Of a stretch of 64,000 nt of DNA, positions 17,959-64,000 are shown piece after piece. The translations under genes and the position numbers were made by a program. Origin of the DNA: Eukaryota sp. TZLM1-RC (taxonomy: Eukaryota; Protista; Metamonada: BaSk clade). The notes below the pieces were generated by a model that was not told the DNA's origin, made no database searches, and saw nothing but the letters and a program-made list of their open reading frames with translations. Location: NCBI GenBank assembly GCA_040285825.1, contig JAUPSS010000004.1, positions 5,547,784 through 5,611,783 of the forward strand, in the 5' to 3' direction. Numbering within the stretch: the first letter of the stretch is position 1; the number at the start of each line of letters is the position of its first letter.

Positions 17959-18022
17959 ACAAAGTTTGAGCGCCTTTGATTCAACAACCTCAAATTGACA
18001 CATCTCGACTATCCACATCCAC

Positions 18023-23256: not shown

Positions 23257-23257
23257 A

Positions 23258-30474: not shown

Positions 30475-30980
30475 TTGTTCATTTATCTGTTTCGTTCTCA
30501 TAAATGTTTGTATTTTGTGATCTTTTATTAGTATTTTAATGTTTACAAGGTTTTGTTAATATTTTAATTAACTATTCACAACTGGTCTTTCTAGTTTGAA
30601 TTTTATAAACGATTAATTTTGCTGTTGTACAATGTTCAACAATTGACGATCAACGTGTTCATAATTATTTTGATGCTTTAAATGAAAGCATCTGATGTAA
30701 TGACAAACTATTGTCATTAAGTTATTGATTGTCCTCAAAGGAAGATTGTCAAGCATATTTCTTGGCAATAAACCCCCTTTAATGTTATATCTTTCCTTTG
30801 GATGTTTTAGGAAAGTTTTGCATAACAAATTGCGGAAATATACCGAATCATAAATCATTTTCAACCAGTTTTCTATCGACACAAAATTCATTAATGAGGA
30901 AATCAAATGTACAGTTATTTTAAATTGAATTGTATTTTATATCGAAAACTGTTTAAATTGGCAACTGATACCTTGCAATT

Positions 30981-33900: not shown

Positions 33901-35278
33901 TTTTGTAAAAACAGAATCATTTCTGACATTAATTCAAATATGAGTTTTTATTAATGGAATCTAATGATTCAAAAGAAAGTCAAGATTTAAATAAATTTTG
34001 TGAAGTTTGTGATCATTTAATGTTTACATTTGCAACTATCGGTTTACTATTGGATGCGGCCATACTTGGTCTATAGCACCAGATCCCATTCCGAATTCCG
34101 AAGATAAGCGGCCACAGGCTTGGTCAGTAGTTGGGTGGGAGACGACCAGCGAACACTGGGTGCTGCATCCTTTTGATATTTGGTTGCCTGACAATTATTG
34201 TTTTTAATTATCTGCTTAGTTAAGGCAGCAATGCTTCAATGTGACATCATTTTTTTAAAGAATTTTTTTTAATAATTTTAATTTTATTCTAAACCTATAA
34301 ATCAACATCTAAAAAATCCATCTCTCCCAAAACAAAAACACTAGATGCAACTCTCTCATAGTGAGATCCAAGAGAAAGCAAAGCATCGGAAACCATCTTC
34401 AACATCCCCTTAAAAATAGAAAACACAATTCTAGTTTTTAAAGAATTACAAATGTATTATAATCTAATTTTGTAAAAACAGAATCATTTCTGACATTAAT
34501 TCAAATATGAGTTTTTATTAATGGAATCTAATGATTCAAAAGAAAGTCAAGATTTTAATAAATTTTGTGAAGTTTGTGATCATTTAATGTTTACATTTGC
34601 AACTATCGCTTTACTATTGGATGCGGCCATACTTGGTCTATAGTACTGGATCCCATTCCGAATTCCGAAAATAAGTGGCCACAGGCTTGGTCAGTAGTTG
34701 GGTGGGAGACCACCAGCGAACACTGGGTGCTGCATCCTTTTGATATTTGGTTGCCTGACAATTATTGTTTTTAATTATCTGCTTAGTTAAGGCAGCAATG
34801 CTTCAATGCGACATCACAATTTTAAAGAATTACAAATGTATTATAATCTAATTTTGTAAAAACAGAATCATTTCTGACATTAATTCAAATATGAGTTTTT
34901 ATTAATGGAATCTAATGATTCAAAAGAAAGTCAAGATTTAAATAAATTTTGTGAAATTTGTGATCATTTAATGTTTACATTTGCAACTATCGGTTTACTA
35001 TTGGATGCGGCCATACTTGGTCTATAGCACCAGATCCCATTCCGAATTCCGAAGATAAGCGGCCACAGGCTTGGTCAGTAGTTGGGTGGGAGACCACCAG
35101 CGAACACTGGGTGCTGCATCCTTTTGATATTTGGTTGCCTGACAATTATTGTTTTTAATTCTCTGCTTATTTTAGGCAGTGGTGCTTCAATGCGACATCA
35201 CATTTTTAAAGAATTACAAATGTATTTTAATCTAGTTTTGTAACAACAGAATCATTTCTGACATTAATTCAAATATGA
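30981..35278 (+). rRNA. 5S rDNA array, left part: 11 genes (30981, 31364, 31748, 32132, 32517, 32901, 33285, 33668, 34052, 34619, 35003)
   Basis: 384-bp units of a 5S gene plus AT-rich spacer. Confidence 0.95.
34265..34434 (-). mobile_element. 170-bp LINE 3'-end insertion (family C) in a 5S spacer, with a 13-bp TSD
   Basis: This unit is 567 bp = 384+170+13; tttttaaagaatt at 34252-34264 and 34435-34447; minus strand reads RIVFSIFKGMLKMVSDALLSLG...DVDL* followed by an A tail. Confidence 0.9.
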
Positions 35279-38200
35279 TGTTGGCGCCCTAAGGCTTTTA
35301 TAATATGAATAGAAAATAAATTATCTTTATCTCAACCACTTTTGCAACCTAAGGCAACAATAATTATTGGCCGTATTAGGTTATAGGTATACCGTTTACA
35401 CAACTCACAGCTATCAAACAGAGGATATCTTCAGCGGATATCATGTCAGTCTCTCCTCGCCAGGACGCTGACTCCAGCCAAATTTTTTACATTAGTCAGA
35501 TGCAACAGTACGATAGAGATGCTTTAAGCATATGTACAACAACAGCAGGGACTGAAGAGTCAAATAAAGAAGAGGACTCGGGCTCGAGACCACCCTCCGC
35601 CCCTCCTCATGAGAAAGAAATGGAACCAGGCACGGAACCACCTCCCGCCTCTTCCAAATCAAAAACAATGGAACCAAACACGGAACCACCTCCCGCCTCT
35701 TCCATGTCAAACAAACCAGATAAGGTTTCAGGAACGGGACCACCCCCCTCCTCACCTAAAGAAAATGTTGGGTTAAGCTCGGATACTTCGTCTGCCCTAA
35801 AGGACTACGAAGAACTCCAGTCCGTTTTAGAAGAAATGGACGACGATGAAAAAGAGCTTCGCCAACAGATAATGAAGGACGCGGAAGCTCACCTTGAACC
35901 AACAGATTACTGTCTGTTCGAGCAGCTCCCTCCCCTTTGGAAGCAAATATCAAAATCTGGTAGAAATGTGGGATTCCAGACTCTGGGCCATAAAGGATAA
36001 CCCTAATAGAGTCTACGAATTCCCTCAAAATGAGAGAAGAGAACTCATTAACGCGTTGGACACTTTGAGTAGAGAGACCTATGGACGCGGGGCAGAACGC
36101 CGTCCTAGGATAACCGGTATGGATAGAGAGATCCATATGATTCTGGCAAAACCTATCAAAGATAGGCCTGATTGGGAAGCCATTCATTTAGATCAGTTCG
36201 GGAGAAGGATCAGGTTCTTAGCCATCGAACGAAGGAGCAGAACCGATACCGACGACATCCTGGAAACCAAATTACCGGCATGGATGGACTCGTACTTTGA
36301 TACGATCATTCATAACTACTCAGAGGTAGAGGATGGGGCTCCTACTTGTTTCAGAGAATACATGGAACAAGCAGACAGCACAAATCCAAGTAAGTTGGAT
36401 CCCGTCAGTGACTTCTTTGACGCGGACGCCCTAAATAACATACTCACGGAACGTTCAAGCGTATCCACATTTAGGAGCCGCCCAAATAACTTCATTCAGC
36501 AATTCGGGGAATCAACGACAAGGAAGAAGAAGTTCAGGTTCTTGGTCACGGGTGATCAATCAACAAAGCTCCACCAGAGACCTAAACTTCCTATAATTGC
36601 CCCCATTATATCTGAAAAAGAGCAACCGGTACAAGTCTGTTCCATTGACGTACTCCCTGATCACATCCCGACAGTAGATGTGACAGAACGAACAAACAGA
36701 CCTACCAGAGTGGTTCAGGGACCATCAAGTCCCTCCCAACCTATGCTCACTAGCGCATCAGAAGACGAAGTCGAGTTGAGAGGACCTAGTTTAGATGAAA
36801 CACCTCCTCCTCAACCCCCTCGTAGAAGAGTTACTTCTGAGGAGCCTCTCCGTTTGGAAGACCTCCAAGCTTCTAGAAACATTTTGGATATGAGTATAGC
36901 AAGTAGTCTTCAGAGACATGTGGACTCTCAGCCTAGGTCAGCTGAATATAAAGCCCCTCACCTATCTGAGAAAGACCCTCTCAACAAGATGTCTCTCGTC
37001 TCCTTCCTCCTCAAATTCCAAACATGGGACAAATACGGACGCAAGATAGCCAATCGAAGCTTTCAAGCCCCTGGTCAATCTGATTGGTCTCGTGCTATGT
37101 TGATAGCAACCCAAATATTTGGTGAAGGAAAGACCCAGATTACCCCTGAGTTGTTATCATCACTCCCATCTCACATCAGAGAAGAAATAGACAGGGACAT
37201 GAAACAGCCACTCTTAAGGATCGACCCAGAACTGACGAAACGTTTGGGACCTCCTATCCATCATTATGACTTATTCAGAAGTATGATGATAAGTACTTGT
37301 CCATCCGGCTTATCAAGCATGGTCGACCCCCATCTCATCTCTAGATGGCAAGGCCAAGGACTTCTAAGACCGGACTTCTCAGACGCTGAGTTAATGGTTT
37401 TTCTGCTACGCAGGACACAATTTACCTCATATCACGAGGCTTGCTCTGCCCTAGCAAAACCATGTATAAATTGGAGAAACATCCACAACAAAGTAGATGT
37501 GGACAACGAATTTGGTAGGTTCGTCGAAGATTTTGGAGACGTCCTGAGGATGACCACTTATATGGTTGATCACTCCATATCTGCATCAATTAGGGGAAAC
37601 AGCGGTTTAATAACCCTCTCACCCGCCCTTATTGCAGAATATTTTCTCTTGGGTATAGATAATTTTGCCATTACCAAGGAGCTAGCAAGCCATTGGACAA
37701 GAGAAGATCTATGGGACCCTTCAACAGGTACAACTTTGTTAGACCTGATTTCGACCACCAGGAGACACTTTTTAGCTTGGTGCCAAACAACAGGAAATAG
37801 GCACACTATGGAACTTTTGAGAAAACAAGCTGAAAGAGAAGAAGACATCCCACTAGGCCTTTCGACCATGAGAACGTTCTCTAGAGGAGCAACCCCATCT
37901 GGTCCAGGTACTAAACGTCGCTCGGGAGGCGGATCCAAAGGAACTCCCCAAAACAAATATGTCCCAGAAAGACATGAACGAGAGGGATCTAAGTTCTGTA
38001 CATTCTGTAACGTCACCGAAGGAAATAATCCTATCGGTCACACGGTTTTCGAATGCAAAGACCCCCGTTGTACCAGGAGCAAGGTACCAAAAGAATTGAG
38101 GTTCAAGATCGGCGAGGCTGATCAGCCTGCGAGAAGTGGCAGCGTAGTTAGAGGCCGAGGTGGCCGTGGTAGACGTATTTCTAGGTTTAGAGGTAGGGGC

Positions 38201-41200
38201 CGAGGTGGCCATTTTAGAGGACATAAAGGCAGAGGTCAATATAGACCTATTTATTACATAAACACACAAGAGGATACATCATCAACATCATCCCCTTCTG
38301 AGAACGTGTCAGCTAGTTCGAGCATGACCTCTCACAGACGGATTGACCGTTTCAGCAACAGGGTCAGAAACACTGGAAACTTTCCCAATCGGAAACAAAT
38401 CAACGCAATCAATCATAATCAATCAATTGCCGATTTCGGAAACCCAGTCAACAACTCCCCAACAGCTCAACAATTCTTACTAAATCCTCTACAATTCCAC
38501 AAACCCAGCTCTGATATCAACAGTATTTTTGGTATAAATTCTACGGTTAGTGAGAACCACATCAGATCCCAGCGTTCTCCATTTCTAAGATTGGAGATTT
38601 TAATAAATAATATAAAGACGATTGCAACTATTGATTCGGCAGCGTTTTGTTCGGTTATAACAGAAGATTTGGCTAACAAATGCAACATGTCAATTAATAG
38701 AGATGATACAATTGAGTTCTTGCCAGCCAATAACGTATCAAGTAAATCGCTAGGGAGTGCAAATGGTATTCTGTCGTTCAACGTAGGAAGCATTGCGCAC
38801 CAGGTACATTATAGACATACTCTTCCCATAATCCCGGGTTCGAACAAATTATTAATAGGGATAGACATGTTAAAAACACTTGGGCTTCAGACGGATGATG
38901 GTCTTTTCATTAGATTAGACAAAGAACACCGCACTTTGTTAAATGCAGAATCTGAATTCGACTCAAGAATCGCTCAACATTCGATTGGGACCTTAGATAA
39001 CCAATCATCGAGTCCTTCCGATTTTGAGGAGCAGTTAACTAGATCTGGTTGTGAGATAAAATTAGATGATGATAATAATAAATTAAAATTAACGAGTCTA
39101 CTAAGAATTTTCAGCGATGTTTTTAGTGAAACTCCAAACAGAAAAGGAATCGATTGTAAACCTCTAACAATCCCCTTTAGAGACGAAAATGCTATAGTAC
39201 ATAAACCTGCTAGACGATTAAATCCCAGCAAAATGGAAATAGCAAACAAAATATTTGATGAACTGATTGAAATGGGCTATGCAGTTGAATCTAATTAAAA
39301 ATTCAGCTCTCCTATTGTCTTAGTTATATATCCTGACGGCAAGAAACCCAGGTTAACGGGAGACTTTAGCGGTAAAGATGGAGTCAATGCCCACACGATT
39401 TCAGTAGAACCTAATCTACCTAGGATTAGTGATATTTTAGAATTTTTAAGTAGAGCAGATTACATAGCCACGCTTGATTTACCAAAAGCTTTCTGGCAAA
39501 TGAATGTAGCAGAAAAGGACATTGAGAAAACATCAATCTCAATCCCTGGAAGGTCAATTATGTTTAAAAGAGCTTGCTTCGGATTAAAGAACATCCCAGC
39601 AGTATTTCAAAATGTAATGATGGAAATATTCCAAATTGATGGCGTTTTCATATATATTGATGATATTATAATAGTTGGAACGACTTTCGATGAATTCTAT
39701 AAGAGATTACAAAGAGTCCTCCAATGTGCCAGAAATAGACGTGTAAATATAGGTTTACGTAAATGTAAATTCGTAACATCCAAACACCCTATTGATATTT
39801 TAGGAAGCACCTTCCAGGATAAAACCAGATTTATTAGTAAAAAAATCGAAGCCTTGATGAGAATCCCTAGACCAAAATCAGTGAAAGAAGTTCGCTCATT
39901 GGTAGGATCCATCAATTATATAAGAGATTGGCTTCCAGGTATTTCCGAATTAATAGCTCCAATTAATGAGTTAATTAAAGGAAAACCTAGAGTAATAAAA
40001 TGGACCAACGAGCATGACGATTATCTTAAACAAATAAAAGATTTAATAATTAATCACATGCCCCTTGAATTACCAGCTCCGGGCAAGCGCGTACTAATAA
40101 GTACCGACGCATCAGATGTAGCAGTTGGAGGCGTTATTTGGCAAGAAATTGAACCATACTCCCCTGCAGGAACCCCGCTGAATAAAAGAAAAGTGAAACC
40201 TTTGTCGTTCTATAGTAGATTACTTACAGAAACACAAAGGAAATGGTCCACTTTACAGAAAGAATTATATGCAATTCTTCTGATTTTAACTGAAAGTTGT
40301 TTAGAAAGCTACCTTTTGACTAGACATCTAACAATTTTCACCGATCACAAAAATATTGCATTCCTGGCCACAGCCCCAGAGAAAAATAGAATTGTAAAGA
40401 GATGGCTGCCGATACTATCTGAATTCGACTTTGATATAGTCCATGAACCAGGTGAAGATAACCACTGGGCAGATATGCTATCGGGGAATATTGATTTAGA
40501 TCAAGATGAGGAAACTCCTTCTATATGTAGTATAAATATACCAGATACTTTACTTTCGAATTACGAGATACCTCCTATAGACGATGATTCTGATTCGGAC
40601 TTCGAAGACATCCCATCAATTTCATCCCTAAGTAGACACCAAGACTTACCTATTTTTTCTTCTTGGTTCTCTAAAATCAGATCTGAACAACAAATAGCCA
40701 AAAATAATAATGACCCTCTATTTGAGAATGCAATTTTAGATGAAAATACTCAAATTTGGAAAAACAATAAAAATAAAATTTTAATTCCAAAAAGCCTCAG
40801 AAAACAGGCACTATTATTAATTCATGGATTGGTTCAATCAGGCCACCCCAGCAAAAACGACAGTCTACATAAACTGTCCAAAAGCGACTTTTTCTGGCCT
40901 AATATGAGAAAGGACCTCATAAACCACATCAAAAGATGCCCAACTTGTCAAAAAAACGGCACCAGTTAAAAGAACAAAAACACCCTCCACAGGTTCCCTT
41001 TGGGCAGATCGTCCTTTGCCAGACTAAATGTTGACACAATTGGACCTCTGAATACTGATAGTGATGGTAATAAATACTTATTAGTATTTGTAGATTCTTT
41101 TACTGGATATTCAATTTTTAGTCCCTCTGAAGGAACTCAATGCCTTAGAGACCGCAGACGCTTTGATTTGGAACGTTTGCGCAATTTTTGGCATACCTAT

Positions 41201-42347
41201 GTTAATTCATAGTGATAATGGTCCTGAGTTCGCCAATGAGACTTTTTAAGATAGTGTGTAATAGATTAGCTATTGAGATGAGTAACTCAATACCCCACTA
41301 CTCTGAAAGTAATGGACTCGTAGAGCGAAAACATAGAGACGTTCTACAATGCTTGAGGAAATTATTAATAGATTTTAATGATTACGGAAATTGGTCTACT
41401 TATGTACCCATATCCCAACTATTAATAAATTCCACTAAAAGCAGAAAGACAGGTTTTACACCTTACGAACTAATGTTCGGATCTTCGATTAGTCCAAGAT
41501 CGGACCCTGCAAACATATTAGGAAACTTATCAAAATTTGATTCCAATATACCTTTATTAGACGATATTAAAATGAAAAATACTCGTCTGCAAGAAAAAAA
41601 TGAAGAAGCAGAGCGTCATCAATCATTAAATACTCCGATTTCAGTAGACAATACTAATTCGCGTTCTATAGTATTTAATATTGGTGACTATGTCCTACGT
41701 AAAACCAAACAGAATAATAAATTACATGGATCTTGGAACGGACCCTTTTTAGTAATAGACCATCCTTCCAACTCCACTTTATTATTAAAGAATCTTATCA
41801 CTGGCAGTGAATTAAAGGCTGCTAAGAAAGATTGTAAAATCTATAACGCAGATAATCCTCAGGATATCGAATTTCTAAAGGCAGTCGCAGCAGGCGATGC
41901 TGAGAAACATGTTATAGAGAAAATCCTCTCAGAATATAATTCTGACTCAGGTAGTTTCTGTACTGTTCAATGGTTTGGCGGTGAGACAACAGAAGAGCCT
42001 CTCCATTCAGTTAAACATTCAGAAGCTTACAAGTTGTTCAGCAGGAATAACAAGAAAATTGGAAAACGTACCTCTAGTCAACGTAAGAGTACCTCCAATA
42101 ACTCTACGCCTTGCAAGAGGCCTAGACGCAGTACTAGAATTAGGAAGTGATGCTAATTCTCAGTTTAGATTAGGTTATTTGTAGTTATTTAGTTATTTAG
42201 TTATTTGTTTATAGTTTAGATTCATATTTATATAAGCCTATTAGCTCTGCAAAAGGGAAGAAGCAGTGTTGGCGCCCTAAGGCTTTTATAATATGAATAG
42301 AAAATAAATTATCTTTATCTCAACCACTTTTGCAACCTAAGGCAACA
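35279..42347 (+). mobile_element. Full-length Ty3/gypsy LTR retrotransposon with a chromodomain-like tail, inserted in a 5S spacer
   Basis: Identical 81-bp LTRs TGTTG...CAACA (35279-35359, 42267-42347); TSD ATGA; polypurine tract (PPT) aaaagggaagaagcag at 42251-42266; domain order Gag-PR-RT-RH-IN. Confidence 0.95.
35443..42150 (+). pseudogene. gag-pol polyprotein, broken into five ORFs by indels and one stop
   Basis: Zn knuckle CTFC-x10-H-x4-C, RG-rich tract, protease IDSAA/LIGIDML, RT LDLPKAFWQ/FGLKN/YIDD, RNase H TDASD/KELYAI/TDHKN, integrase GHP/CPTCQ/VDTIGP/SDNG/NGLVER, chromo-like VIEKIL...VQWFG...EEP. Confidence 0.9.
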
Positions 42348-48300: not shown

Positions 48301-51300
48301 ACCAGCGAACACTGGGTGCTGCATCCTTTTGATATTTGGTTGCCTGACAATTATTGTTTTTAATTCTCTGATTATTTTAGGCAGTGGTGCTTCAATGCGA
48401 CATCACATTTTTAAAGAATTACAAATGTGTTTTAATCTAGTTTTGTAACAACAGAATCATTTTTGACATTAATTCAAATATGAGTTTTTATTAATGGAAT
48501 CTAATGATTCAAAAGAAAGTCAAGATTTAAATAAATTTTGTGAAGTTTGTGATCATTTAATGTTTACATTTGCAACTATCGGTTTACTATTGGATGCGGC
48601 CATACTTGGTCTATAGCACCAGATCCCATTCCGAATTCCGAAGATAAGCGGCCACAGGCTTGGTCAGTAGTTGGGTGGGAGACCACCAGCGAACACTGGG
48701 TGCTGCATCCTTTTGATATTTGGTTGCCTGACAATTATTGTTTTTAATTATCTGCTTAGTTAAGGCAGCAATGCTTCAATGTGACATCATTTTTTTAAAG
48801 AATTACAAATGTATTATAATCTAATTTTGTAAAAACAGAATCATTTCTGACATTAATTCAAATATGAGTTTTTATTAATGGAATCTAATGATTCAAAAGA
48901 AAGTCAAGATTTTAATAAATTTTGTGAAGTTTGTGATCATTTAATGTTTACATTTGCAACTATCGCTTTACTATGGATGCGGCCATACTTGGTCTATAGC
49001 ACCGGATCCCATTCCGAATTCCGAAGTTAAGCGGCCACAGGCCTGGTCAGTAGTTGGGTGGGAGACCACCAGCGAACACTGGGTGCTGCATCCTTTTGAT
49101 ATTTGGTTGCCTGACAATTATTGTTTTTAATTCTCTGATTATTTTAGGCAGTGGTGCTTCAATGCGACATCACATTTTTAAAGAATTACAAATGTGTTTT
49201 AATCTAGTTTTGTAACAACAGAATCATTTCTGACATTAATTCAAATATGAGTTTTTATTAATGGAATCTAATGATTCAAAAGAAAGTCAAGATTTAAATA
49301 AATTTTGTGAAATTTGTGATCATTTAATGTTTACATTTGCAACTATCGGTTTACTATTGGATGCGGCCATACTTGGTCTATAGCACCAGATCCCATTCCG
49401 AATTCCGAAGATAAGCGGCCACAGGCTTGGTCAGTAGTTGGGTGGGAGACCACCAGCGAACACTGGGTGCTGCATCCTTTTGATATTTGGTTGCCTGACA
49501 ATTATTGTTTTTAATTCTCTGCTTATTTTAGGCAGTGGTGCTTCAATGCGACATCACATTTTTAAAGAATTACAAATGTATTTTAATCTAGTTTTGTAAC
49601 AACAGAATCATTTCTGACATTAATTCAAATATGAGTTTTTATTAATGGAATCTAATGATTCAAAAGAAAGTCAAGATTTTAATAAATTTTGTTAAGTTTG
49701 TGATCATTTAATGTTTACATTTGCAACTATCGGTTTACTATTGGATGCGGCCATACTTGGTCTATAGCACCGGATCCCATTCCGAATTCCGAAGTTAAGC
49801 GGCCACAGGCCTGGTCAGTAGTTGGGTGGGAGACCACCAGCGAACACTGGGTGCTGCATCTTTTTGATATTTGGTTGCCTGACAATTATTGTTTTTAATT
49901 CTCTGATTATTTTAGGCAGTGGTGTTTCAATGCGACATCACATTTTTAAAGAATTACAAATGTATTTTAATCTAGTTTTGTAACAACAGAATCATTTCTG
50001 ACATTAATTCAAATATGAGTTTTTATTAATGGAATCTAATGATTCAAAAGAAAGTCAAGATTTAAATAAATTTTGTGAAGTTTGTGATCATTTAATGTTT
50101 ACATTTGCAACTATCGGTTTACTATTGGATGCGGCCATACTTGGTCTATAGCACCGGATCCCATTCCGAATTCGAAGTTAAGCGGCCACAGGCCTGGTCA
50201 GTAGTTGGGTGGGAGACCACCAGCGAACACTGGGTGCTGCATCCTTTTGATATTTGGTTGCCTGACAATTATTGTTTTTAATTCTCTGCTTATTTTTAGG
50301 CAGTGGTGCTTCAATGCGACATCACATTTTTAAAGAATTACAAATGTATTTTAATCTAGTTTTGTAACAACAGAATCATTTCTGACATTAATTCAAATAT
50401 GAGTTTTTATTAATGGAATCTAATGATTCAAAAGAAAGTCAAGATTTAAATAAATTTTGTGAAGTTTGTGATCATTTAATGTTTACATTTGCAACTATCG
50501 GTTTACTATTGGATGCGGCCATACTTGGTCTATAGCACCGGATCCCATTCCGAATTCCGAAGTTAAGCGGCCACAGGCCTGGTCAGTAGTTGGGTGGGAG
50601 ACCACCAGCGAACACTGGGTGCTGCATCCTTTTGATATTTGGTTGCCTGACAATTATTGTTTTTAATTCTCTGCTTATTTTAGGCAGTGGTGCTTCAATG
50701 CGACATCACATTTTTAAAGAATTACAAATGTATTTTTAATCTAGTTTTGTAACAACAGAATCATTTCTGACATTAATTCAAATATGAGTTTTTATTAATG
50801 GAATCTAATGATTCAAAAAGAAAGTCAAGATTTAAATAAATTTTGTGAAGTTTGTGATCATTTAATGTTTACATTTGCAACTATCGGTTTACTATTGGAT
50901 GCGGCCATACTTGGTCTATAGCACCGGATCCCATTCCGAATTCCGAAGTTAAGCGGCCACAGGCCTGATCAGTAGTTGGGTGGGAGACCACCAGCGAACA
51001 CTGGGTGCTGCATCCTTTTGATATTTGGTTGCCTGACAATTATTGTTTTAATTCTCTGCTTATTTAAAGCAGCGGTGCTTCAATGCGACATCACATTTTT
51101 AAAGAATTACAAATGTATTTTAATCTAGTTTTGTAACAACAGAATCATTTCTGACATTAATTCAAATATGAGTTTTTATTAATGGAATCTAATGATTCAA
51201 AAGAAAGTCAAGATTTAAATAAATTTTGTGAAGTTTGTGATCATTTAATGTTTACATTTGCAACTATCGGTTTACTATTGGATGCGGCCATACTTGGTCT

Positions 51301-54300
51301 ATAGCACCGGATCCCATTCCGAATTCCGAAGTTAAGCGGCCACAGGCCTGATCAGTAGTTGGGTGGGAGACCACCAGCGAACACTGGGTGCTGCATCCTT
51401 TTGATATTTGGTTGCCTGACAATTATTGTTTTAATTCTCTGCTTATTTAAAGCAGCGGTGCTTCAATGCGACATCACAATTTTAAAGAATTACAAATGTA
51501 TTTTAATCTAGTTTTGTAACAACAGAATCATTTCTGACATTAATTCAAATATGAGTTTTTATTAATGGAATCTGATGATTCAAAAGAAAGTCAAGATTTT
51601 AATAAATTTTGTTAAGTTTGTGATCATTTAATGTTTACATTTGCAACTATCGGTTTACTATTGGATGCGGCCATACTTGGTCTATAGCACCGGATCCCAT
51701 TCCGAATTCCGAAGTTAAGCGGCCACAGGCCTGGTCAGTAGTTGGGTGGGAGACCACCAGCGAACACTGGGTGCTGCATCCTTTTGATATTTGGTTGCCT
51801 GACAATTATTGTTTTTAATTCTCTGATTATTTTAGGCAGTGGTGTTTCAATGCGACATCACAATTTTAAAGAATTACAAATGTATTTTAATCTAGTTTTG
51901 TAACAACAGAATCATTTCTGACATTAATTCAAATATGAGTTTTTATTAATGGAATCTGATGATTCAAAAGAAAGTCAAGATTTTAATAAATTTTGTTAAG
52001 TTTGTGATCATTTAATGTTTACATTTGCAACTATCGGTTTACTATTGGATGCGGCCATACTTGGTCTATAGCACCGGATCCCATTCCGAATTCCGAAGTT
52101 AAGCGGCCACAGGCCTGGTCAGTAGTTGGGTGGGAGACCACCAGCGAACACTGGGTGCTGCATCCTTTTGATATTTGGTTGCCTGACAATTATTGTTTTT
52201 AATTCTCTGATTATTTTAGGCAGTGGTGTTTCAATGCGACATCACATTTTTAAAGAATTACAAATGTATTTTAATCTAGTTTTGTAACAACAGAATCATT
52301 TCTGACATTAATTCAAATATGAGTTTTTATTAATGGAATCTAATGATTCAAAAGAAAGTCAAGATTTAAATAAATTTTGTGAAGTTTGTGATCATTTAAT
52401 GTTTACATTTGCAACTATCGGTTTACTATTGGATGCGGCCATACTTGGTCTATAGCACCGGATCCCATTCCGAATTCCGAAGTTAAGCGGCCACAGGCCT
52501 GGTCAGTAGTTGGGTGGGAGACCACCAGCGAACACTGGGTGCTGCATCCTTTTGATATTTGGTTGCCTGACAATTATTGTTTTTAATTCTCTGCTTATTT
52601 TAGGCAGTGGTGCTTCAATGCGACATCACATTTTTAAAGAATTACAAATGTGTTTTAATCTAGTTTTGTAACAACAGAATCATTTCTGACATTAATTCAA
52701 ATATGAGTTTTTATTAATGGAATCTGATGATTCAACAGAAAGTCAAGATTTTAATAAATTTTGTTAAGTTTGTGATCATTTAATGTTTACATTTGCAACT
52801 ATCGGTTTACTATTGGATGCGGCCATACTTGGTCTATAGCACCGGATCCCATTCCGAATTCCGAAGTTAAGCAGCCACAGGCCTGGTCAGTAGTTGGGTG
52901 GGAGACCACCAGCGAACACTGGGTGCTGCATCCTTTTGATATTTGGTTGCCTGACAATTATTGTTTTTAATTCTCTGCTTATTTTAGGCAGTGGTGCTTC
53001 AATGCGACATCACATTTTTAAAGAATTACAAATGTATTTTAATCTAGTTTTGTAACAACAGAATCATTTCTGACATTAATTCAAATATGAGTTTTTATTA
53101 ATGGAATCTAATGATTCAAAAGAAAGTCAAGATTTAAATAAATTTTGTGAAGTTTGTGATCATTTAATGTTTACATTTGCAACTATCGCGTTACTATTGG
53201 ATGCGGCCATACTTGGTCTATAGCACCGGATCCCATTCCGAATTCCGAAGTTAAGCGGCCACAGGCCTGGTCACCAGCGAACACTGGGTGCTGCATCCTT
53301 TTGATATTTGGTTGCCTGACAATTATTGTTTTTAATTCTCTGCTTATTTAAGGCAGCGGTGCTTCAATGCGACATCACAATTTTAAAGAATTACAAATGT
53401 ATTTTAATCTAATTTTGTAACAACAGAATCATTTCTGACATTAATTCAAATATGAGTTTTTATTAATGGAATCTGATGATTCAACAGAAAGTCAAGATTT
53501 TAATAAATTTTGTTAAGTTTGTGATCATTTAATGTTTACATTTGCAACTATCGGTTTACTATTGGATGCGGCCATACTTGGTCTATAGCACCGGATCCCA
53601 TTCCGAATTCCGAAGTTAAGCGGCCACAGGCCTGGTCACCAGCGAACACTGGGTGCTGCATCCTTTTGATATTTGGTTGCCTGACAATTATTGTTTTTAA
53701 TTCTCTGCTTATTTAAGGCAGCGGTGCTTCAATGCGACATCACAATTTTAAAGAATTACAAATGTATTTTAATCTAATTTTGTAACAACAGAATCATTTC
53801 TGACATTAATTCAAATATGAGTTTTTATTAATGGAATCTGATGATTCAACAGAAAGTCAAGATTTTAATAAATTTTGTTAAGTTTGTGATCATTTAATGT
53901 TTACATTTGCAACTATCGGTTTACTATTGGATGCGGCCATACTTGGTCTATAGCACCGGATCCCATTCCGAATTCCGAAGTTAAGCGGCCACAGGCCTGG
54001 TCAGTAGTTGGGTGGGAGACCACCAGCGAACACTGGGTGCTGCATCCTTTTGATATTTGGTTGCCTGACAATTATTGTTTTTAATTCTCTGATTATTTTA
54101 GGCAGTGGTGCTTCAATGCGACATTACATTTTTAAAGAATTACAAATGTGTTTTAATCTAGTTTTGTAACAACAGAATCATTTTTGACATTAATTCAAAT
54201 ATGAGTTTTTATTAATGGAATCTAATGATTCAAAAGAAAGTCAAGATTTAAATAAATTTTGTGAAGTTTGTGATCATTTAATGTTTACATTTGCAACTAT

Positions 54301-54725
54301 CGGTTTACTATTGGATGCGGCCATACTTGGTCTATAGCACCAGATCCCATTCCGAATTCCGAAGATAAGCGGCCACAGGCTTGGTCAGTAGTTGGGTGGG
54401 AGACCACCAGCGAACACTGGGTGCTGCATCCTTTTGATATTTGGTTGCCTGACAATTATTGTTTTTAATCATCTGCTTAGTTAAGGCAGCAATGCTTCAA
54501 TGTGACATCATTTTTTTAAAGAATTACAAATGTATTATAATCTAATTTTGTAAAAACAGAATCATTTCTGACATTAATTCAAATATGAGTTTTTATTAAT
54601 GGAATCTAATGATTCAAAAGAAAGTCAAGATTTTAATAAATTTTGTGAAGTTTGTGATCATTTAATGTTTACATTTGCAACTATCGGTTTACTATTGGAT
54701 GCGGCCATACTTGGTCTATAGCACC
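42348..54725 (+). rRNA. 5S rDNA array, right part: ~33 genes from 42460 to a truncated copy at 54697
   Basis: Continuation of the ~380-386-bp units; the spacer resumes exactly at the TSD. Confidence 0.95.
53199..53663 (+). pseudogene. Two adjacent 5S pseudogenes with the same 19-nt internal deletion
   Basis: ggcctggtcaccagcg instead of ggcctggtcagtagttgggtgggagaccaccagcg; units are 365 bp. Confidence 0.9.
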
Positions 54726-56790
54726 TGCTCATTAGACTTTAGAAGTTCATGTATATCAGCAGTAGGTTAGACTGGAACATCTTCTATGGAAGAAAGATGA
54801 GTAGAAAGAGGGTGAAGAGTGTGAAGTAGAGAGACAAGGTAATAATAAGTATTCAGATGTCTAGTTTCAAGACAAGAAGTGCAGCTGAAAGGGGTGACAC
54901 AGCAGAAGTTGTTGGCACAGCTTGGGATGGACGATCTGCAATAGACTCGAGTTTAGACTCAAGAATAGCCAGCAGTGCCTCTACAGACTGTCTTTTGTTA
55001 GTCTATTTTAGGGATTCAATGTTTTATAGTCAATGTGTGAGCGCACTAAACGAAACCTATAATCGCTATAATAGAAAAGCCAACAGTTCCACAAAGATCC
55101 ATGGCGAATTCAGATATAGTTGAACGAGGAGCAAAAGGTTCTTCGTCAAAGAGGGAAAGAAATGGTAAGAAAGAAACGGGTGTTGTGACTTCCCTTGGTA
55201 ACGTGTTTGTACTGAATAAGGGAATTAAATTGTGAAACTTTACGAATTTTTTGAATCTACAAACACCCTTGATTAAATGAACAACTGCTTTGACTAACAA
55301 CAATTTCATCAAATTTCACATCAGTTTACTATTTTTAGGAAAGAAAATGCTTAAAGCATGCCCAGTATCTATTATAAATGTGTCTATTTATCAGTTTGTG
55401 CATGTTCCATTGTTTTGTGGATGTAAGGAGTTGAAAATACACCAAATTTTAAAAGTAGCTGAAACTGAGAAATCAATCATTTTTGATTGTCTGCACCTTC
55501 CGTTTTCAGTAAGGACTACTGAAGACGGAGTAATTAATGTTTGGTGACGCTCTGCTTCTTCCCTTTTTTCTTGTAGACGAGTGTTTTTCATTTTAATGTC
55601 ATCTAGTAAAGGGATATTAGTTTCAAATTTGGATAAATTTCCTAATATATTAGCAGGGTCTGTTCTTGGACTAATCGAAGAACCGAACATCAGTTCGTAG
55701 GGGGTAAAACCAGTTTTTCTGCTTTTAGTAGAATTTATTAATAGTTGGGATATAGGTACATAAGTAGACCAATTTCCGTAGTCATTAAAATCTATTAATA
55801 GTTTCCTTAAGTATTGAAGAACGTCTCTATGTTTACGTTCTACAAGTCCATTACTTTCTGAATAGTGGGGAATTGAGTTACTCATCTCAATCGCTAATCT
55901 ATTACACACTATTTTGAAAGTCTCATTGGCGACCTCAGGTCCATTATCGCTATGAATTAACATAGGTATGCCAAAAATTGCGCAAACGTTCCAAATCAAA
56001 GCATCTGCGGTTTTTAAGGCATTGAGTTCTTTTAGAGGGACTAAAATTGTATATCCAGTAAAAGAGTCTACAAAAACTAATTGATATTTATTTCCTTCGT
56101 TGTCAGTGTTCAGAGGTCCAATTGTATCGACGTTTAATCTGGCGAATGGACGATCTGCCCATAGAGATCCTGTGGAAGGTGTTTTTGATCTTTTAACTGG
56201 AGCCGTTTTTTGACAAGTTGGGCAACTTTTGACATGATTTATGAGGTCCTTTCTCATATTAGGCCAGTAGAAGTCACTTTTGGATAGTTTGGGTAAACTA
56301 TCGTTTTTGCTGGGGTGGCCAGATTGAACTAAACCATGTATTAATAATAGTGCCTGTTTTCTGAAGCTCTTTGGAATTAAAATTTTATTTTTATTATTTT
56401 TCCAAATTTGAGTATTTTCATCTAGAATTGCATTTTCAAATAAAGAGTCATTGTTGTTTTTGGCTACTTGTTGTTCAGATCTTATTTTAGAGAACCAAGA
56501 AGAAAAAATGGGTAAGTCTTGGTGTCTACTTAAAGATGAAATTGATGGGACATCTTCAAAGTCCGAATCAGAATCATCGTCTAATGGAGGTATCTCGTAA
56601 TTCGAAAGTAAAGTATCTGGTATATTTATACTACAAATAGAAGGAGTTTCCTCGTTTTGATCCAAATCAATATTCCTCGATAGCATATCTGCCCAATGGT
56701 TATTTTCACCAGGTTCATGGACTATATCAAAGTCGAATTCAGATAGTATCGGCAGTCATCTCTTTACAATTCTATTTTTCTCTGGGACTG

Positions 56791-59700
56791 TGATGATCTG
56801 TGGGGGTTAGACATTGAGTATACCTTAAATGTAGAGTAATTTATTACAAGGGAATGAGGATTTCCCTTAACTTAAGCGCATGGGCGCAATAATACAATAA
56901 CTATGAATAAACTATAAATAAACTAATATAAATATTATCCAAGGCTAACACTGCCCTTTCTTCTTTTCGAGCGTCGAGGCCTGATAGGAGTTGGATTAAC
57001 ATTATTGTTAATTTTATCAGAACGACGTTTACGGCGTGAAGGACGAGAGCGAGTATTAGAAATAGACTTGGAGAATTCTTTATAAGCAGAGGTGTTTTGA
57101 ACAGTCGAAACCAGTTCAGTGGTAATATGATTGCCAGGCCATTGGACTTGACAGTAATCACCATCCTGACTGAGGACTTTCTGGATCACGTGCTCTTTTG
57201 CATCGCCAGCAGCAACCCAGGAGTAAAATTCATCATCTGCTGGTAAACTGGAATGCCAAGGTTGGAGGTGCTTCACACTGGCTTTAACAACCATACCAGT
57301 ACACAGATTCTTGATGTCAGCTGTGGAGGTAGAGGGTGTGTTAATAACTAAGAATGGCCCTTTGTAATTACCATGTAACTTAGCAGTGGAAGACGAAGCT
57401 CGTTTGACCAATTGGCCAGGAGAGAAAGGGTTGGCTTTGATTTGGGCATCACGAGGAGGAGCCTTGGAAGCTTGACGGAGCGCTGCTTCCTCCTGTTTCT
57501 TCTTCAATCTAGCAAATTTAGATTGAATGTCGTTGATATATGTTGACTCAGACGTTGAGCTTTCGAGGGTCTCTATGATTTTGCCGGAGTCAGCTCTGGG
57601 GCGAAAATCTGAACCAAACATGAGCTCGTATGGAGAGTAACCTGTAATCGAACTCTTGGATGAGTTGATTAACAATTGTACATAGGGTATGTACTCTGAC
57701 CATGCATCGTAGGCGTTAAAATCTACGAGCAGCTTCCTCAAATTTTGCAAAATGTCACGGTGACGGCGTTCGACTAAACCGTTGGACTGAGAAAAGTGAG
57801 GGACGGACTTTGAGACCTCTATGCCCAAAAATTCACATAGGGCGTCGAAGACAGCTTTTGAGAACTCAGGACCGTTGTCACTATGAACTATGAACGGGAT
57901 CCCGAATATCGCACATACCTTCCATATGAGAGCGTCGGCAGTAAGGTTGGCGTTGAGTTCTTTGAGAGGGACAATGATAGTGAACCTCGTGAAGCTATCC
58001 ACAAATACAAAAATGTATCTGATTGATTCATCTTGTTGATCATTTTGAGACTCAATGCTCAAAGATGAGAAAACAGTGTCTGTATCCACTGGGTCAGGAT
58101 CAGAGGTTCTCAATTCTACTGGGTCATGACTGCTTGGATAGTAACTTTCCAAAATACCATCAATGTTAACCCATAGAAGAGAACTTGAATTGGTGACACC
58201 AATGTTCTCTTGTACATTCAATAGGGCATCCCTTAGAGGCCTATTCCTTCTGTGCTCTGGACCAAAATATGACGCGCAATGGTCTGGTCTGCGGTCTTGA
58301 AGGTACAATCTCTGATAGTTCGTAGTGTAGGGGTACCACCATCCAGTCCTGAAGTCTCTGTTGATATAAATATCAAGAGAAGCATTGTATCCAGGGCTAA
58401 ACCTGGGAAAAGGACATGGATTACACCGGTTGAGGAAGAGATTCAGCTCATCACCAGCGAAGATCCTCTGTACACCTTCACGAAGAGTCCTGAACCCTCC
58501 AACAGTCTCCCGTTGAGGATAATTTGGAGGAGGGTCACAACGAACCGTGAGATTGTCTACTTCCTCCGTTGGGAAGTAGGGGCCTATTCTTCTGCGGATC
58601 CTAAAGCCGTGATCATTAACCACTTCTGGACCCCAAAATGGGGGTAAAGCAGCAATGAGTTCATTGGGAGGAATCGATGCAGGATCTCCTTGCATTAACT
58701 CAATACCAGCATTGAGAACTAAGTTTTGAGCTTCAGTTCTCTGCTGAGTAGAGATGAAAGGAGAATCTGATTCCTGGGGCTGGCTTGGGGCTTGATAGGT
58801 GTTGAGCTGTGCAGCACTAAGCACCTGCCAAGCAGCAGGAACAGAAAAAACAACGTGACCTTGCTGAGGAGTCTGGCCAGAGGTTGGAGGGATATGAATT
58901 ACTCCTCTAGTAGGAACTCCCGAAGGAGGAACAGGTGGAGTTGAATGGACTTCTGTAGGAGCTACCGTAGTAGGAGCAGAAGTATCAGGAAGACCTGCTA
59001 CAGGAGCTTCTTGGGAAGGAGTAGTAGGATTAGGGTTACCAGCAGGGACTGCAGGAAGAGCTGGTTGTTGCGGTGGGCTGCTTTCCATTGGAACTTCCAT
59101 AGAAGGAATGGAAGGAGCTCGTTGTCCTTCCTCAGGAACTTCCGAAGAAGGAGTCGAAGGGGCTTGTTGTCCTTCCTCAGGAACTTCCGAAGAAGGAGTG
59201 GAAGGGACGACAGGAGCGCAAACTATAGGTGAAGAGGGAGACTCCACCATCTTGAGCTTCAACAGCTCGGATATCTTGTTGCTGGCCGAGTCAGGACCAG
59301 TCTGGTTGATATTATACTTCAGATATTCATCTAAAGTACTGAACTGTTCAGGACCTAAAAGGGAATCTTCAACCTCTCCTTCAGAACCAGGGGGAGGAGA
59401 AAGAGGTACAAAGTTTTCCACATTAGAGGGAGAAACAGGAAGACTGATAGGAACCACAGGAACATCCGTGGATGGAGTGGGACCTTGACCCGGAGGGTGA
59501 GAGGAAGTATCACTTCTCTCGCCACCAGAGGGTAGTTCTGTTCCCAACTGAGGAGTTTGGGAGGAAGAACTTGAAGCATTGGGTTGTGTGACAGAATCTC
59601 CAGAAGGAGGAGTCGACACAGGAGGAGGAGAAGCATTGCTTCCCTCGGACCCAGTTGTCAAGGGTTGTTCTGGTCCCGACTGAGGAGTTCGGGAGGAAGA

Positions 59701-59943
59701 ACTCGAAAGGTGAGACGTAGGAGGATCAGTCCTAACAGTCTCGAAGGTGTCATTGGAACCACCCAAAGGTGATCCAATACGTATTGATGATCTGTGGGGG
59801 TTAGACATTGAGTATACCTTAAATGTAGAGTAATTTATTACAAGGGAATGAGGATTTCCCTTAACTTAACGCATAGACGCAATAATACAATAACTATGAA
59901 TAAACTATAAATAAACTATTATAAATATTATCCAAGGCTAACA
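56791..59943 (-). mobile_element. Nested non-autonomous LTR element (3153 bp) of a second family
   Basis: LTRs 59785-59943 (159 bp) and 56791-56950 (160 bp), TG...CA on the minus strand, ~4 differences; TSD ACTG splits the host RNase H region; PPT aaaagaagaaagggcag next to the 3' LTR. Confidence 0.92.
56935..59808 (-). CDS. 957-aa ORF: Pro/Ser-rich region plus Gag N-terminal-like region fused to an integrase core and chromo-like tail; no PR, RT or RNase H
   Basis: FVDSFTRF, HSDNGPEF, SNGLVERRH, GPF, HVIQKVL...VQWPG; LPPFW, DHGFRIR and FAGDELN resemble LPPLW, DQFGRRIR and FDADALN in the N-terminus of the full element. Confidence 0.8.
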   Translation of the reverse strand: MSNPHRSSIRIGSPLGGSNDTFETVRTDPPTSHLSSSSSRTPQSGPEQPLTTGSEGSNASPPPVSTPPSGDSVTQPNASSSSSQTPQLGTELPSGGERSDTSSHPPGQGPTPSTDVPVVPISLPVSPSNVENFVPLSPPPGSEGEVEDSLLGPEQFSTLDEYLKYNINQTGPDSASNKISELLKLKMVESPSSPIVCAPVVPSTPSSEVPEEGQQAPSTPSSEVPEEGQRAPSIPSMEVPMESSPPQQPALPAVPAGNPNPTTPSQEAPVAGLPDTSAPTTVAPTEVHSTPPVPPSGVPTRGVIHIPPTSGQTPQQGHVVFSVPAAWQVLSAAQLNTYQAPSQPQESDSPFISTQQRTEAQNLVLNAGIELMQGDPASIPPNELIAALPPFWGPEVVNDHGFRIRRRIGPYFPTEEVDNLTVRCDPPPNYPQRETVGGFRTLREGVQRIFAGDELNLFLNRCNPCPFPRFSPGYNASLDIYINRDFRTGWWYPYTTNYQRLYLQDRRPDHCASYFGPEHRRNRPLRDALLNVQENIGVTNSSSLLWVNIDGILESYYPSSHDPVELRTSDPDPVDTDTVFSSLSIESQNDQQDESIRYIFVFVDSFTRFTIIVPLKELNANLTADALIWKVCAIFGIPFIVHSDNGPEFSKAVFDALCEFLGIEVSKSVPHFSQSNGLVERRHRDILQNLRKLLVDFNAYDAWSEYIPYVQLLINSSKSSITGYSPYELMFGSDFRPRADSGKIIETLESSTSESTYINDIQSKFARLKKKQEEAALRQASKAPPRDAQIKANPFSPGQLVKRASSSTAKLHGNYKGPFLVINTPSTSTADIKNLCTGMVVKASVKHLQPWHSSLPADDEFYSWVAAGDAKEHVIQKVLSQDGDYCQVQWPGNHITTELVSTVQNTSAYKEFSKSISNTRSRPSRRKRRSDKINNNVNPTPIRPRRSKRRKGSVSLG

Positions 59944-62900
59944 ACTGTGGTCAGGCATGCAATGTTTTTATGATCTGTGAAAATTGTTAAATGTCTAGTT
60001 AACAAGTAGTTTTCTAAACAACTTTCAGTTAAAATCAAAAGTATTGCATATAATTCTTTTTGTAATGTGGACCATTTTCTTTGTGTTTCTGTAAGTAATC
60101 TACTATAGAATGACAAAGGTTTTACTTTCCTTTTATTTAGCGGGGTTCCTGCAGGGGAGTAGGGTTCAACTTCTTGCCAAATTACGCCTCCTACTGCTAC
60201 ATCTGAAGCGTCAGTATTTATCAATATTCGCTTGCCCGGAGCCGGTAATTCAAGGGGCATGTGGTTTACTGTTAGCATGATTATGACTATTTGGGATGTT
60301 CTTTAATCCGAAGCAAGCTCTTTTAAACATGATTGACCTTCCAGGAATTGAGATTGATGTTTTCTCAATATCCTTTTCAGCTACATTCATCTGCCAGAAA
60401 GCTTTTGGTAAATCAAGCGTGGCGATGCAATTTGCTCTACTCAAAAATTCTAAAATATCACTAATCCTAGGTAGATTAGGCTCTACTGAAATCGTATGGG
60501 CATTAACTCCATCTTTACCACTAAAGTCTCCAGTTAACCTGGGTTTCTTGCCGTCAGGATATATAACTAAGACAATAGGAGAGCTGAATTTATAATTAGA
60601 TTCAACTGCATAACCCATTTCGATCAGTTCATCAAATATTTTGTTTGCTATTTCCATTTTGCTGGGATTTAACCGTCTAGCAGGCTTGTGTACTATAGCA
60701 TTCTCATCTCTAAAGGGGATTGTTAGAGGATTACAATCGATTCCTTTTCTATTAGGAGTTTCACTAAAAACATCGCTGAATAATTTAGTAGACTCGTTAA
60801 TTTTAATTTATTATTACTATCATCTAAATTTATCTCACATCCAGATCTTGCTAATTGCTCCTCAAAATCAGAACCACTTGGTGATTGGTTATCTAAGTTC
60901 CCAATCGAATGTTGATCGATCCTAGAGTCGAATTCTGATTCTGCATTTAGCAAAGTGCGGTGTTCTTTGTCTAATCTAATGAAAGGACCATCATCCGTCT
61001 GAAGCCCAAGTGCTTTTAACATGTCTGTCCCTATTAATAATTTGTTCGAACCCGGGATTATGGGAAGAGTATGTTTATAATGAACTTGTTGCGCAATGCT
61101 TCCTACGTTGAAGGACAGAATACCAGTTGCACTCCCTAGCGATTTTGTGGATACGTTATTAGCTGGTAAGAACTTAATAGTATCCTTGCTATTGATTGAC
61201 ATATGGCATTGTTCAGCTAAATCTGCAGTAATAACTGAACAAAACGCTGCCGAATCTATAGTCGCAATCATTTTAATATCATTTATTGATATCTCCAGTC
61301 TTAGAAATGGAGAACGCTGGGACCTGATGTGGTTTTCACTAACCGTAGAATTAATATCAAAAATACTATTGATGTCAGAGCTGGATTGGTGAATTAGTAG
61401 AGGAATAAAAAGATTTTGTTGAGCTGTTGGAAAGTTGTTGACCGGGTTTCCTAAATCGGTTGTTGATTGATTGTGATTGATTGCGTTGATGTGTACCCGA
61501 TTAGGTAAGTTGCCTGTCCTGCTGTTCCGGTTGCTGTAGTTGATCCGTCTATGAGGAACCGTACTCGAACGGGTCGGTTTTGACTCAGTAGGGGATGCGT
61601 TTGATGATATATTCTCTGTAGTGTTGATGTTATAAATAGGTCTGTACTGACCTCTACCTTTATAACCTCTAAAACGGCCTCCACGGCCTCTAAATTTGAA
61701 TCTATGTACACGTCTACCACGACCACCTCGGCCCCTATCTACACTGCCTCTACTAGCAGGCGCCTCCTGTTCTCCTAATCTAAATCTTTCCTCTTTGGGA
61801 ACTCTGCTTCTAGCACAACAAGGGTCTTTGCATTCGAATACAGTGTGGCCAACAGGATTGTTACCTTCGACGTTGCTGCAGAATGTACAGAATTTTGATC
61901 CTTCTCGTTCATGCTTTTCAGGGATGTATTTGTGTTGAGGGGTTCCTCTTGACTTTCCACCTGATCGTCTTACTCGTTTTGATGGAGCCTGGGCTGATGG
62001 TGTTACTCCTCTTGAGTAAGTTCTCATCGCCGTGAGTCCCAAAGGAATATCTTCTTCATTAGCCCTGTTCCTTAGTACATCCATTGTGGGTTTGTTTCCT
62101 GCTGTGTAACACCAAGCGAGGAAATGTCTTCTCGTTGTTGATATCAAATCGAGTAGAGTTGTTCTGTTCGGTGAGTCCCACAAGGATTCCCTAGTCCATA
62201 CTGGAAGGAGTTCACTTGATATAGCAAAGTTATCCAAACCCATAAGGAAGTACTCGGCTATTAGAACGGGAGATATGGTTATCAGCCCACTGCTTCCTCT
62301 AATTGAATCGGGTATGGTTAGGTCGGTCATGTAGGTGGTCATTCTCAAGACGTCTCCAAAATCTTCTACATAACGACCAAACTCGTTGTCAGCCTCATGC
62401 CTATTGTGGATTTTTCTCCAGTTAATTCTAGGCTTCATTAGAGCTGTACAGGCCTCGTGATATGATGTGAATTGTGTTCTTTTTAACAGAAATACCATGA
62501 CGTCGGCGTCGGTATAATCAACACCGAGTAAACCTTGACTTTGCCATCTGGATAAAAGGCTAGGGTCAATCATGCTGGATATTCCTGTAGGGCAAGTGCT
62601 CATCATCATGCTCCTAAATAAATCATAATGGTGGATTGGGGGTCCGAGCTTATCTGTTATAGCTGGGTCAATCCTTACCAAAGGCTGTGTTGTATCCCTG
62701 GTGATCTCGTCGCGTATATGTTTGGGGAGATCTTTAATCCTATCTTGGGTTATTTCTGCTTGGCCTTCTCCAAATAGCTGGGTAGCTATCAAAAGGCTCT
62801 GGTCCAATCTGATTGACCTGGGGCTTCAAAGCTTCTATTAGCTATCTTTCGCCCGTATTTATCCCAAGTTTTTAAAAGAAAAGCTATGATAGACATTTTG

Positions 62901-64000
62901 TTGATAGGGTCATCAGCGGATAATCGAGGTCTTTTATAGTCGATATCCTTAGACCGTGGATCAATCTGTCTATGAAGGCTACTAGCTATGCTCATGTCAA
63001 TAGCTCTTCTTGAGGATTGTAGGTCCTCAATACGCATAGATCTGTCGGAAGAAGAGTTTCTTACTGAGGGTTGAGGAGGAGCCGTTTCTCCAACGACTGG
63101 CCCGTTCAACTCTATGTCTTCTCCGATTACACATTCCATAGGTTGGAAGGAAGTTGGTTCTTCCTGAGGAGCAACGTCTTGTTTTGTTACAGGTTCCGGG
63201 ACGTTCACTGTTGGAACGTGTTGGGGTATGCTGTCGATAGAGCAGACCTGTATTGGTTGGCTTTTTTCAGAAATAAAAGGAGCTACAACAGGCAATTTCG
63301 GAAGGTGGAGAGATGTGGATGGATCTTCCGTTACCCATTGTCTAAACTCTGGTTGTTTCGTGAACGAGTTACCATGTTGTTGGATGTAGTTGTTAGGACG
63401 GTTCCCATACGTGGATACAGCTGATCGTTCCGTATGAATGTTATTTAAAGCGTCTGCATCGAACCAGGGTGTTACTGGTTCAAGCTTATCTTGTTCACTA
63501 CTGTCCTCCTGCTCCATGAATTCCCTAAAATATGTGGGAGCACCCTCTGTCAGCTCCGTGTAGTTATGGATTTCCGTATCAAAGTTAGGATCAAACCAGG
63601 CAGGCAATTTGGATTGTAGGATGTCTTCCGAGTCGGTCCTACTTCTCTGCTCGATGGAGAGAAACCTTATTCTTCTGCCATGTTGGTCTAGGAAGAAAGC
63701 CTTCCAATCGAATCTATCCTTGATGGAAAGGGACATCATCTCGTTAAATCTTTTTGTCCATGCCAGAGATTCTGGGACGTCGCTCTGCGTTACGCCCGAA
63801 CGTCTCTTTGCTCAATTTATCAAGAGCTTTGATGAGTTCATTCCTTTCATTGAGGGGAATTTCTGATACCTTTTGGGTATCCCCAACCATACCGAGGGTG
63901 TGGAAACCAACGTTTTTGCCTCTTTTACGAATGTAACTCCACAGAGGAGGAAGCTGCTCGAATAGACAGAAATCTGTTGGTTCGAGGTAAGCTTCCGCAT

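Follow-up and report, generated by a model that had tools for sequence, protein, structure and literature searches.

Reverse transcription without a tRNA site in described elements

The closest published case to the locus reported here is the Conserved Hairpin Site (CHSeq1/CHSeq2) of the fungal GalEa elements of the Ty1/copia type (Donnart et al., 2017; PMC5445492). As that account describes it, GalEa lacks a tRNA primer-binding site (PBS) and carries at the PBS position a palindrome that overlaps the end of the LTR; its two main variants, CTGATCAGT and CTAATTAGT, are one compensated pair apart, and the site is proposed to stand in for the PBS by a mechanism that is unsolved. The elements described here share the missing tRNA site and the position of the palindrome. 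They differ in being Ty3/gypsy, with the integrase after RNase H, and in having a palindrome of 12 nt that takes in the whole terminal CA of the LTR, where that of GalEa is given as 10 nt including the LTR's last A (PMC5445492). The GalEa account also places a CHSeq2 complement 12-41 nt downstream with one mismatch (PMC5445492); such a complement was rejected for our elements A and B, the best match in both having 3 mismatches in 9. Two further differences from GalEa, as described, are that a hairpin here pairs U5 with the leader around the palindrome and that the site is often protein-coding.

Tf1 and Tf2 of Schizosaccharomyces pombe are Ty3/gypsy elements that likewise do without a tRNA primer. 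In the published account of Tf1, the element's own RNA primes after RNase H cleavage, and the primer is the first 11 nt of the transcript, which are complementary to the PBS (PMC7175516). We propose by analogy that the element's own RNA may be the primer here too. Self-priming through a complement of the Tf1 type was nevertheless rejected, since the bases after the LTR find at most 6 nt (A) and 4 nt (B) of complement within it, against 11 nt in Tf1; the primer would hence be supplied by the site itself, on another RNA.

Short 5' palindromes at the apex of a hairpin and able to pair two genomes are described in the DS/PAL6 of Ty3 (PMC11381356) and the DIS of HIV-1 (cited in PMC5445492). By these accounts both occur in addition to a tRNA PBS and at a distance from the LTR end, whereas the palindrome here is in the PBS position. 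The descriptions of dictyostelid Skipper (PMC5006619) and of biv-TRIM (PMC6934838) report neither a canonical PBS nor a Tf1-type LTR complement, and priming is unsolved in both, as it is here; Skipper is described as having a polypyrimidine stretch, not a palindrome, and biv-TRIM, which encodes no protein, as having inverted repeats about 25 bp apart. A literature search that took in few subscription journals turned up neither a gypsy element described as having a palindromic primer site nor a paper on a skoliomonad retrotransposon; in the main text of the skoliomonad genome preprint the term "LTR" is absent.

A palindrome in the place of the primer-binding site

The window, by which we mean the whole stretch of 64,000 nucleotides analysed, is eukaryotic and intron-poor, and contains three Ty3/gypsy elements (A, B and C) and 48 5S rRNA genes in 384-bp tandem arrays. 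Its retroelement proteins have their closest named relatives, at 85-97% identity, in Eukaryota sp. TZLM1-RC, which is the free-living metamonad Skoliomonas litria (PMC11603281). The features on which the argument draws are the following.

35279..42347, plus strand: element A, a Ty3/gypsy LTR retrotransposon in a 5S rDNA spacer, delimited by identical LTRs and a target duplication
35279-35359 and 42267-42347, plus strand: the two LTRs of element A, 81 bp, identical
35346..35382, plus strand: bulged junction hairpin of element A, predicted by folding with pair probabilities of 0.70-0.93
35358..35369, plus strand: homologous 12-nt palindrome of element A, CAATAATTATTG, at the 5' LTR junction, non-coding
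55508..63998, minus strand: element C, host of the B insertion, a broken and 3'-truncated sister of A whose 5' end lies beyond the window
59943-56791, minus strand: element B, a Ty3/gypsy deletion derivative of 3.15 kb inserted into pol of element C
59944..59947, minus strand: left copy of the target-site duplication of element B, CAGT (right copy at 56787-56790)
59785..59943, minus strand: 5' LTR of element B, 159 bp, TG...CA, containing the gag ATG at 59808
59757..59802, minus strand: bulged hairpin of element B spanning U5 and leader, with a GATC/GATC inner stem and an imperfect outer stem, in the minimum-free-energy fold both alone and in a 236-nt context
59775..59786, minus strand: perfect 12-nt palindrome of element B, CAATACGTATTG, made up of the last 2 nt of the 5' LTR and 10 nt at the position of a primer-binding site
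56935..59808, minus strand: ORF of 957 aa in element B, gag joined in frame to a C-terminal integrase
56951..56968, minus strand: polypurine tract of element B
56791..56950, minus strand: 3' LTR of element B, 160 bp, adjoined by target DNA
59917-59925 (minus strand, element B) and 35297-35305 (element A): TTTATAATA, LTR positions 19-27, a candidate TATA box

The elements have the hallmarks of Ty3/gypsy, with direct TG...CA repeats, a polypurine tract and 4-bp target duplications (CAGT for B, ATGA around A), and the domain order PR-RT-RNase H-IN is found in A and in P0079, a full-length and uninterrupted relative of B with 2318 aa. Apart from TTTATAATA, the LTRs of A and B are dissimilar and have only short words in common; those of B differ from one another at 4 of 160 columns. 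In the ORF of B the gag region (aa 1-594) and the C-terminal part of integrase (aa 591-957) match residues 1-583 and 1952-2318 of P0079, by comparison with which a deletion has removed some 1370 codons, those for PR, RT, RNase H and the integrase N-terminus. Since this in-frame fusion matches the two ends of P0079, element B is, as judged from its sequence, a non-autonomous deletion derivative, and one that has retained its LTRs, polypurine tract, palindrome and open frame.

Several further observations concern the surroundings. Dissimilar as their LTRs are, A and B have polypurine tracts that end alike, in GCAG, before the 3' LTR. Element A lies some 112 bp upstream of the 5S gene at 42460, a single case in which targeting of pol III genes is possible. 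The 5S rDNA arrays (384-bp unit) number three, at 6561-8522, 30950-35278 and 42348-54725, and are interspersed with protein genes and retroelements. The similarity of C to A ends at 55508, with no 3' LTR, and is followed by about 780 bp of unrelated DNA (54726-55507), which runs up to a 5S gene that breaks off after some 28 nt. Copies of a dispersed repeat (about 175 bp, 84-87% identity) lie at 34262-34439, 11156-11333 and 17829-17963, one of them inside a 5S array. Positions 1-1225 form a long inverted repeat with arms of about 450 bp and 84% identity, possibly a foldback or TIR element, with a further fragment at 11033-11141. A 51-bp tandem array lies within a gene with RUN-domain and Rubicon homology (2251-4569), and more tandem repeats occur at 29704-30003 (75 bp) and at 22208-24279 (where an ORF without a Pfam match is duplicated over about 1027 bp).

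The minus strand from 59802 to 59757 reads exactly as given in the preliminary description of this locus. The alignment of the LTRs and the CAGT duplication put the 5' LTR of B at 59943-59785, so that the palindrome begins at the LTR-terminal CA, as had been stated there. It also noted that this stretch codes for the start of the ORF; the gag ATG lies within the 5' LTR, and the palindrome codes for part of SIRIG in gag. The 3' LTR of B is followed by target DNA, and hence has no palindrome. Within the window, 3 of 4314 CA dinucleotides start a perfect 12-nt palindrome, and two of the three are the LTR junctions of A and B. Shuffling of the hairpin around a fixed CA gave a perfect palindrome in 544 of 2,000,000 sequences for B and in 885 of 2,000,000 for A. 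Given this rarity, the palindrome at the LTR junctions is not a product of chance. The two junctions are not, however, the independent instances that they had been taken for, as A and B are homologous members of one clade, with 57% identity in pol and 10 of the 12 palindrome letters in common.

What makes the site of interest is the position of the palindrome where a primer belongs, rather than the stability of the hairpin or its supposed independence. This goes beyond the preliminary description: the palindrome sits where the PBS should be, and no PBS of the tRNA 3'-end or Tf1 type is present. Elements primed by tRNA are described as having TGG within a few bases of the LTR (PMC5006619); neither A nor B has a TGG-starting site within a few bases of the 5' LTR, the first TGG being at offset 8 in both. 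A displaced tRNA site at this TGG was rejected because of the offset and because it is absent from the TVITV families (in TVITV and TVRTV families the peptide rules out TGG at that position). There are no tRNA genes in the window. The 5S rRNA was set aside as a primer, since the leader of B does not pair with it (-12.2) and the register misfits the LTR end; the complementarity of about 10 nt between the leader of A (35368-35377) and positions 2-11 of the 5S gene (-17.2 kcal/mol; matched by 18 of 1000 shuffles) is not common to B and is probably due to chance. In a comparison that covered the element's own RNA and the 5S rRNA, the only RNA found to be complementary at the post-CA bases was the element's own; a primer made from a host tRNA fragment is conceivable, as in elements of the copia/FunCo1 type, in which the PBS matches an internal part of a tRNA.

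Apparent paired changes in relatives, and the bulged hairpin

Two junctions, those of A and B, were read as DNA, and the other families were reached through peptides, which is possible because gag begins inside the LTR in B and in many relatives. The viral contigs and prokaryote genome contigs searched yielded no further junction DNA, and one metagenome locus, L001, had no match to five polyproteins. Of 181 proteins from three skoliomonad isolates, 71 passed a loose filter applied to residues 1-26. The full palindrome is fitted by 60 of the 181 (SIRIG in 36, TVITG in 13, TVITV in 9, TVRTG in 1 and TVRTV in 1), all 60 being compatible, as peptides, with CA-R-TA-(CG/AT)-TA-Y-TG. Such compatibility is no proof of a palindrome in the DNA; TVRTD at residue 24 of B itself passes the peptide test, though its DNA is not palindromic, and the background stands at 309 compatible windows in 89,049. 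One protein of the D family reads SIRSG, breaking the symmetry, and the remaining 10 of the 71 are loose matches in unrelated contexts, such as the YIDD motif of RT. The motif is lacking in 110 proteins, many of which begin within gag or pol; 6 of the 110 open with MSTDNNNYC, which fits an A-type palindrome in another frame.

At residues 2 and 4 of the motif, 60 of 60 have I..I or V..T; a palindrome would admit four different residues at position 3, and of these R and I occur. When read in the frame of B, the junction of A gives KATIIIGR with a stop soon after, matching the KATVITG[PH] of TZLM3-RCL families; the frame being closed, the motif persists where it is not coding. About ten families make do with four core variants; SIRIG is encoded in one genome by both the B and the D family, whose gag proteins are about 35% identical. 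On a quick tree of RT and RNase H, with open nodes, made from 30 of 66 motif proteins, A and two outgroups (P0152 was left out for its short RT), parsimony counts at least two switches of pair 3/10 and at least three of the central pair, and a second quick tree was similar. The gag N-termini around the motif are of low complexity and cannot be aligned. A search with the gag of P0094, the nearest outside relative, matched only itself, and the 20 matches listed, of 150, from a search with representatives include no new gag N-terminus. An identity between families B and D that rises from about 35% in gag to 65-93% in pol could suggest recombination and hence co-packaging, but unequal rates suffice for it and we make no such claim.

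We infer that the same site, with paired changes, is present in about eight more families, and these comparisons support selection on the self-complementarity of the 12-mer. The selection on structure that had been suggested earlier can be retained for the 12-mer, in which two column pairs switch together and which is kept in A despite its closed frame; the stability of the B hairpin is ordinary. The preliminary description had named dinucleotide-shuffled controls as a check, and in these 116 of 500 shuffles are as stable as the hairpin of B (-11.4 kcal/mol, z -0.68) and 24 of 500 as stable as that of A (35346-35385, z -2.0); thermodynamic exceptionality of the junction hairpin was accordingly rejected.

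In a longer context the hairpin belongs to the minimum-energy fold of both elements, with inner-stem pair probabilities of 0.36-0.40 in B and 0.75-0.77 in A. The hairpin of A has GGC/GCC as its inner stem and bulges of 2 nt on the 5' side and 3 nt on the 3' side. Bulges of the same sizes are present in B, and to this extent the two share one architecture, as had been proposed; the architecture is not clade-wide, however. A stem after a 2-nt bulge fits 7 of 10 family representatives (six with 3-5 pairs, one with 2), whereas the three TVITV/TVRTV representatives are incompatible with it and fit a direct 3-bp extension of the palindrome instead. An A-related variant keeps GCC and TTAGGTT (inner and outer stems), has its 3' bulge cut to 2 nt and diverges after the stem; another A-related contig aligns only from 35347, the 5' edge of the hairpin, and appears to shorten the outer stem. 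Among the rows listed for contigs of runs X1-X3, no change falls inside 59757-59802 and both flanks vary; the differences of covering contigs are all accounted for in X1 and X2, which are one sample and perhaps not independent of the window, and 21 of 23 are accounted for in X3.

The central four bases of the palindrome form the loop of the monomer fold. For the 12-mers, the predicted duplex energies are -9.6 (A-A), -13.5 (B-B) and -4.1 (A-B) kcal/mol. The predicted homodimers lie 12.0 (A) and 15.9 (B) kcal/mol below two monomers, while the heterodimer gains nothing and the A-B cofold has no intermolecular pairs. Discrimination between partners is feasible on these predicted energies, although the family-specific pairing envisaged in the preliminary description is too strong a claim for four core variants shared among about ten families.

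Proposed priming on a partner RNA, and its alternatives

In LTR elements it is the 3' end of the primer that fixes the U5 end of the cDNA, and minus-strand DNA starts at the LTR end, so that a primer must pair within a few bases after the CA. We suggest, with a probability of about 0.5, that in this clade of Ty3/gypsy elements without a tRNA site the palindrome has taken over the position of the PBS, and that it pairs two RNAs, one of which is cut to prime reverse transcription on its partner. As we envisage it, two element RNAs would open their hairpins and form an intermolecular duplex of 12 bp, which the flanking stems would extend. A cut between palindrome positions 8 and 12 would free a 3'-OH; by analogy with Tf1, the palindrome duplex is probably cleaved by RNase H. 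The freed RNA end could then prime reverse transcription on the partner RNA with no tRNA involved. Plus-strand synthesis would copy the primer and so replace one half of the site by the reverse complement of the other, and under this proposal symmetry would be repaired, and paired changes would arise without intermediates, because one half is rewritten from the other. As a loop, the central four bases have no need of symmetry, yet they stay self-complementary, which favours pairing between two RNAs; the bulged hairpin is probably accessory, the monomer form of the signal. Against priming at this site it must be said that the last bases of U5 are also the attachment site of the integrase and are conserved for that reason.

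It is also possible, though we consider it unlikely, that the palindrome serves for dimerisation and co-packaging, like the DIS of HIV-1 or the PAL6 of Ty3, and that the primer is a separate one. The symmetry of the loop is kept, the predicted energies favour homodimers over heterodimers, and short 5' palindromes are reported to drive dimerisation of Ty3 RNA (PMC11381356). Such a signal would leave unexplained why the palindrome has a fixed start at the terminal CA and why another primer site is lacking. The published precedents differ on the same point, as PAL6 is described as a 6-mer at nt 391-396, apart from the primer site (PMC11381356), and the retroviral DIS as existing alongside a PBS (PMC5445492).

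We would make the distinction, too, between priming on a partner and a signal that acts in cis, in which a hairpin of U5 and leader, comparable to the retroviral U5-IR or to the structure in Tf1, folds back and is nicked, and then primes itself or presents the site to a cellular RNA fragment. This we regard as more doubtful still. The fold is predicted for both A and B with equal bulge sizes, the stem is retained in the A-related variant, and the flanking residues covary by class (xA..GP/H, RS or RP..GS, P..V[DA]) in a way that fits a bulged or a directly extended stem. A hairpin acting in cis does not need a self-complementary loop, however, and yet CG and AT switch at least three times with no intermediate; the hairpin of B is no more stable than its shuffles, and a primer folded back at the end of the LTR would be paired over no more than 2-4 bases.

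Symmetry at the level of DNA, as a dyad site for a dimeric protein or the integrase or with a role in the second strand transfer, strikes us as improbable: a perfect dyad does adjoin the integrase attachment end, but a protein site should keep its letters rather than its symmetry, while four letter variants occur, and the palindrome is at the 5' junction only and not at the cDNA end that integrase binds. The slightest chance we allow to an incidental palindrome, held by shared descent and by constraint on the gag N-terminal peptide, for although A and B are of one clade with most palindrome letters alike, the motif is coding in most families and the hairpin energy is ordinary, the motif is kept in A with its closed frame and in another frame in the NNNYC family, the R-to-I and I..I-to-V..T switches obey rules of base pairing and not of amino-acid similarity, and the neighbouring gag N-termini are low-complexity stretches that defy alignment.

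Priming on a partner RNA would, and here we are somewhat less confident than about the reading as a whole, constitute a third way for an LTR element to start reverse transcription, with a symmetry that maintains itself while the letters drift in pairs. How reverse transcription starts in the absence of both a tRNA site and a Tf1-type complement is an unsolved question, raised also by the GalEa CHS, Skipper and Tcn2-5, and the present clade offers a minimal signal of 12 nt in four natural variants, two of which occur together in a single genome, so that a clean test of priming in cis against priming in trans is possible. The palindrome can also be a diagnostic for annotating LTR elements that are missed by PBS-based tools. 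If the proposal is true, the choice of a dimer partner and priming would coincide in a single step, and copies with deletions, element B among them, could be mobilised only together with RNAs of the same palindrome variant or with themselves.
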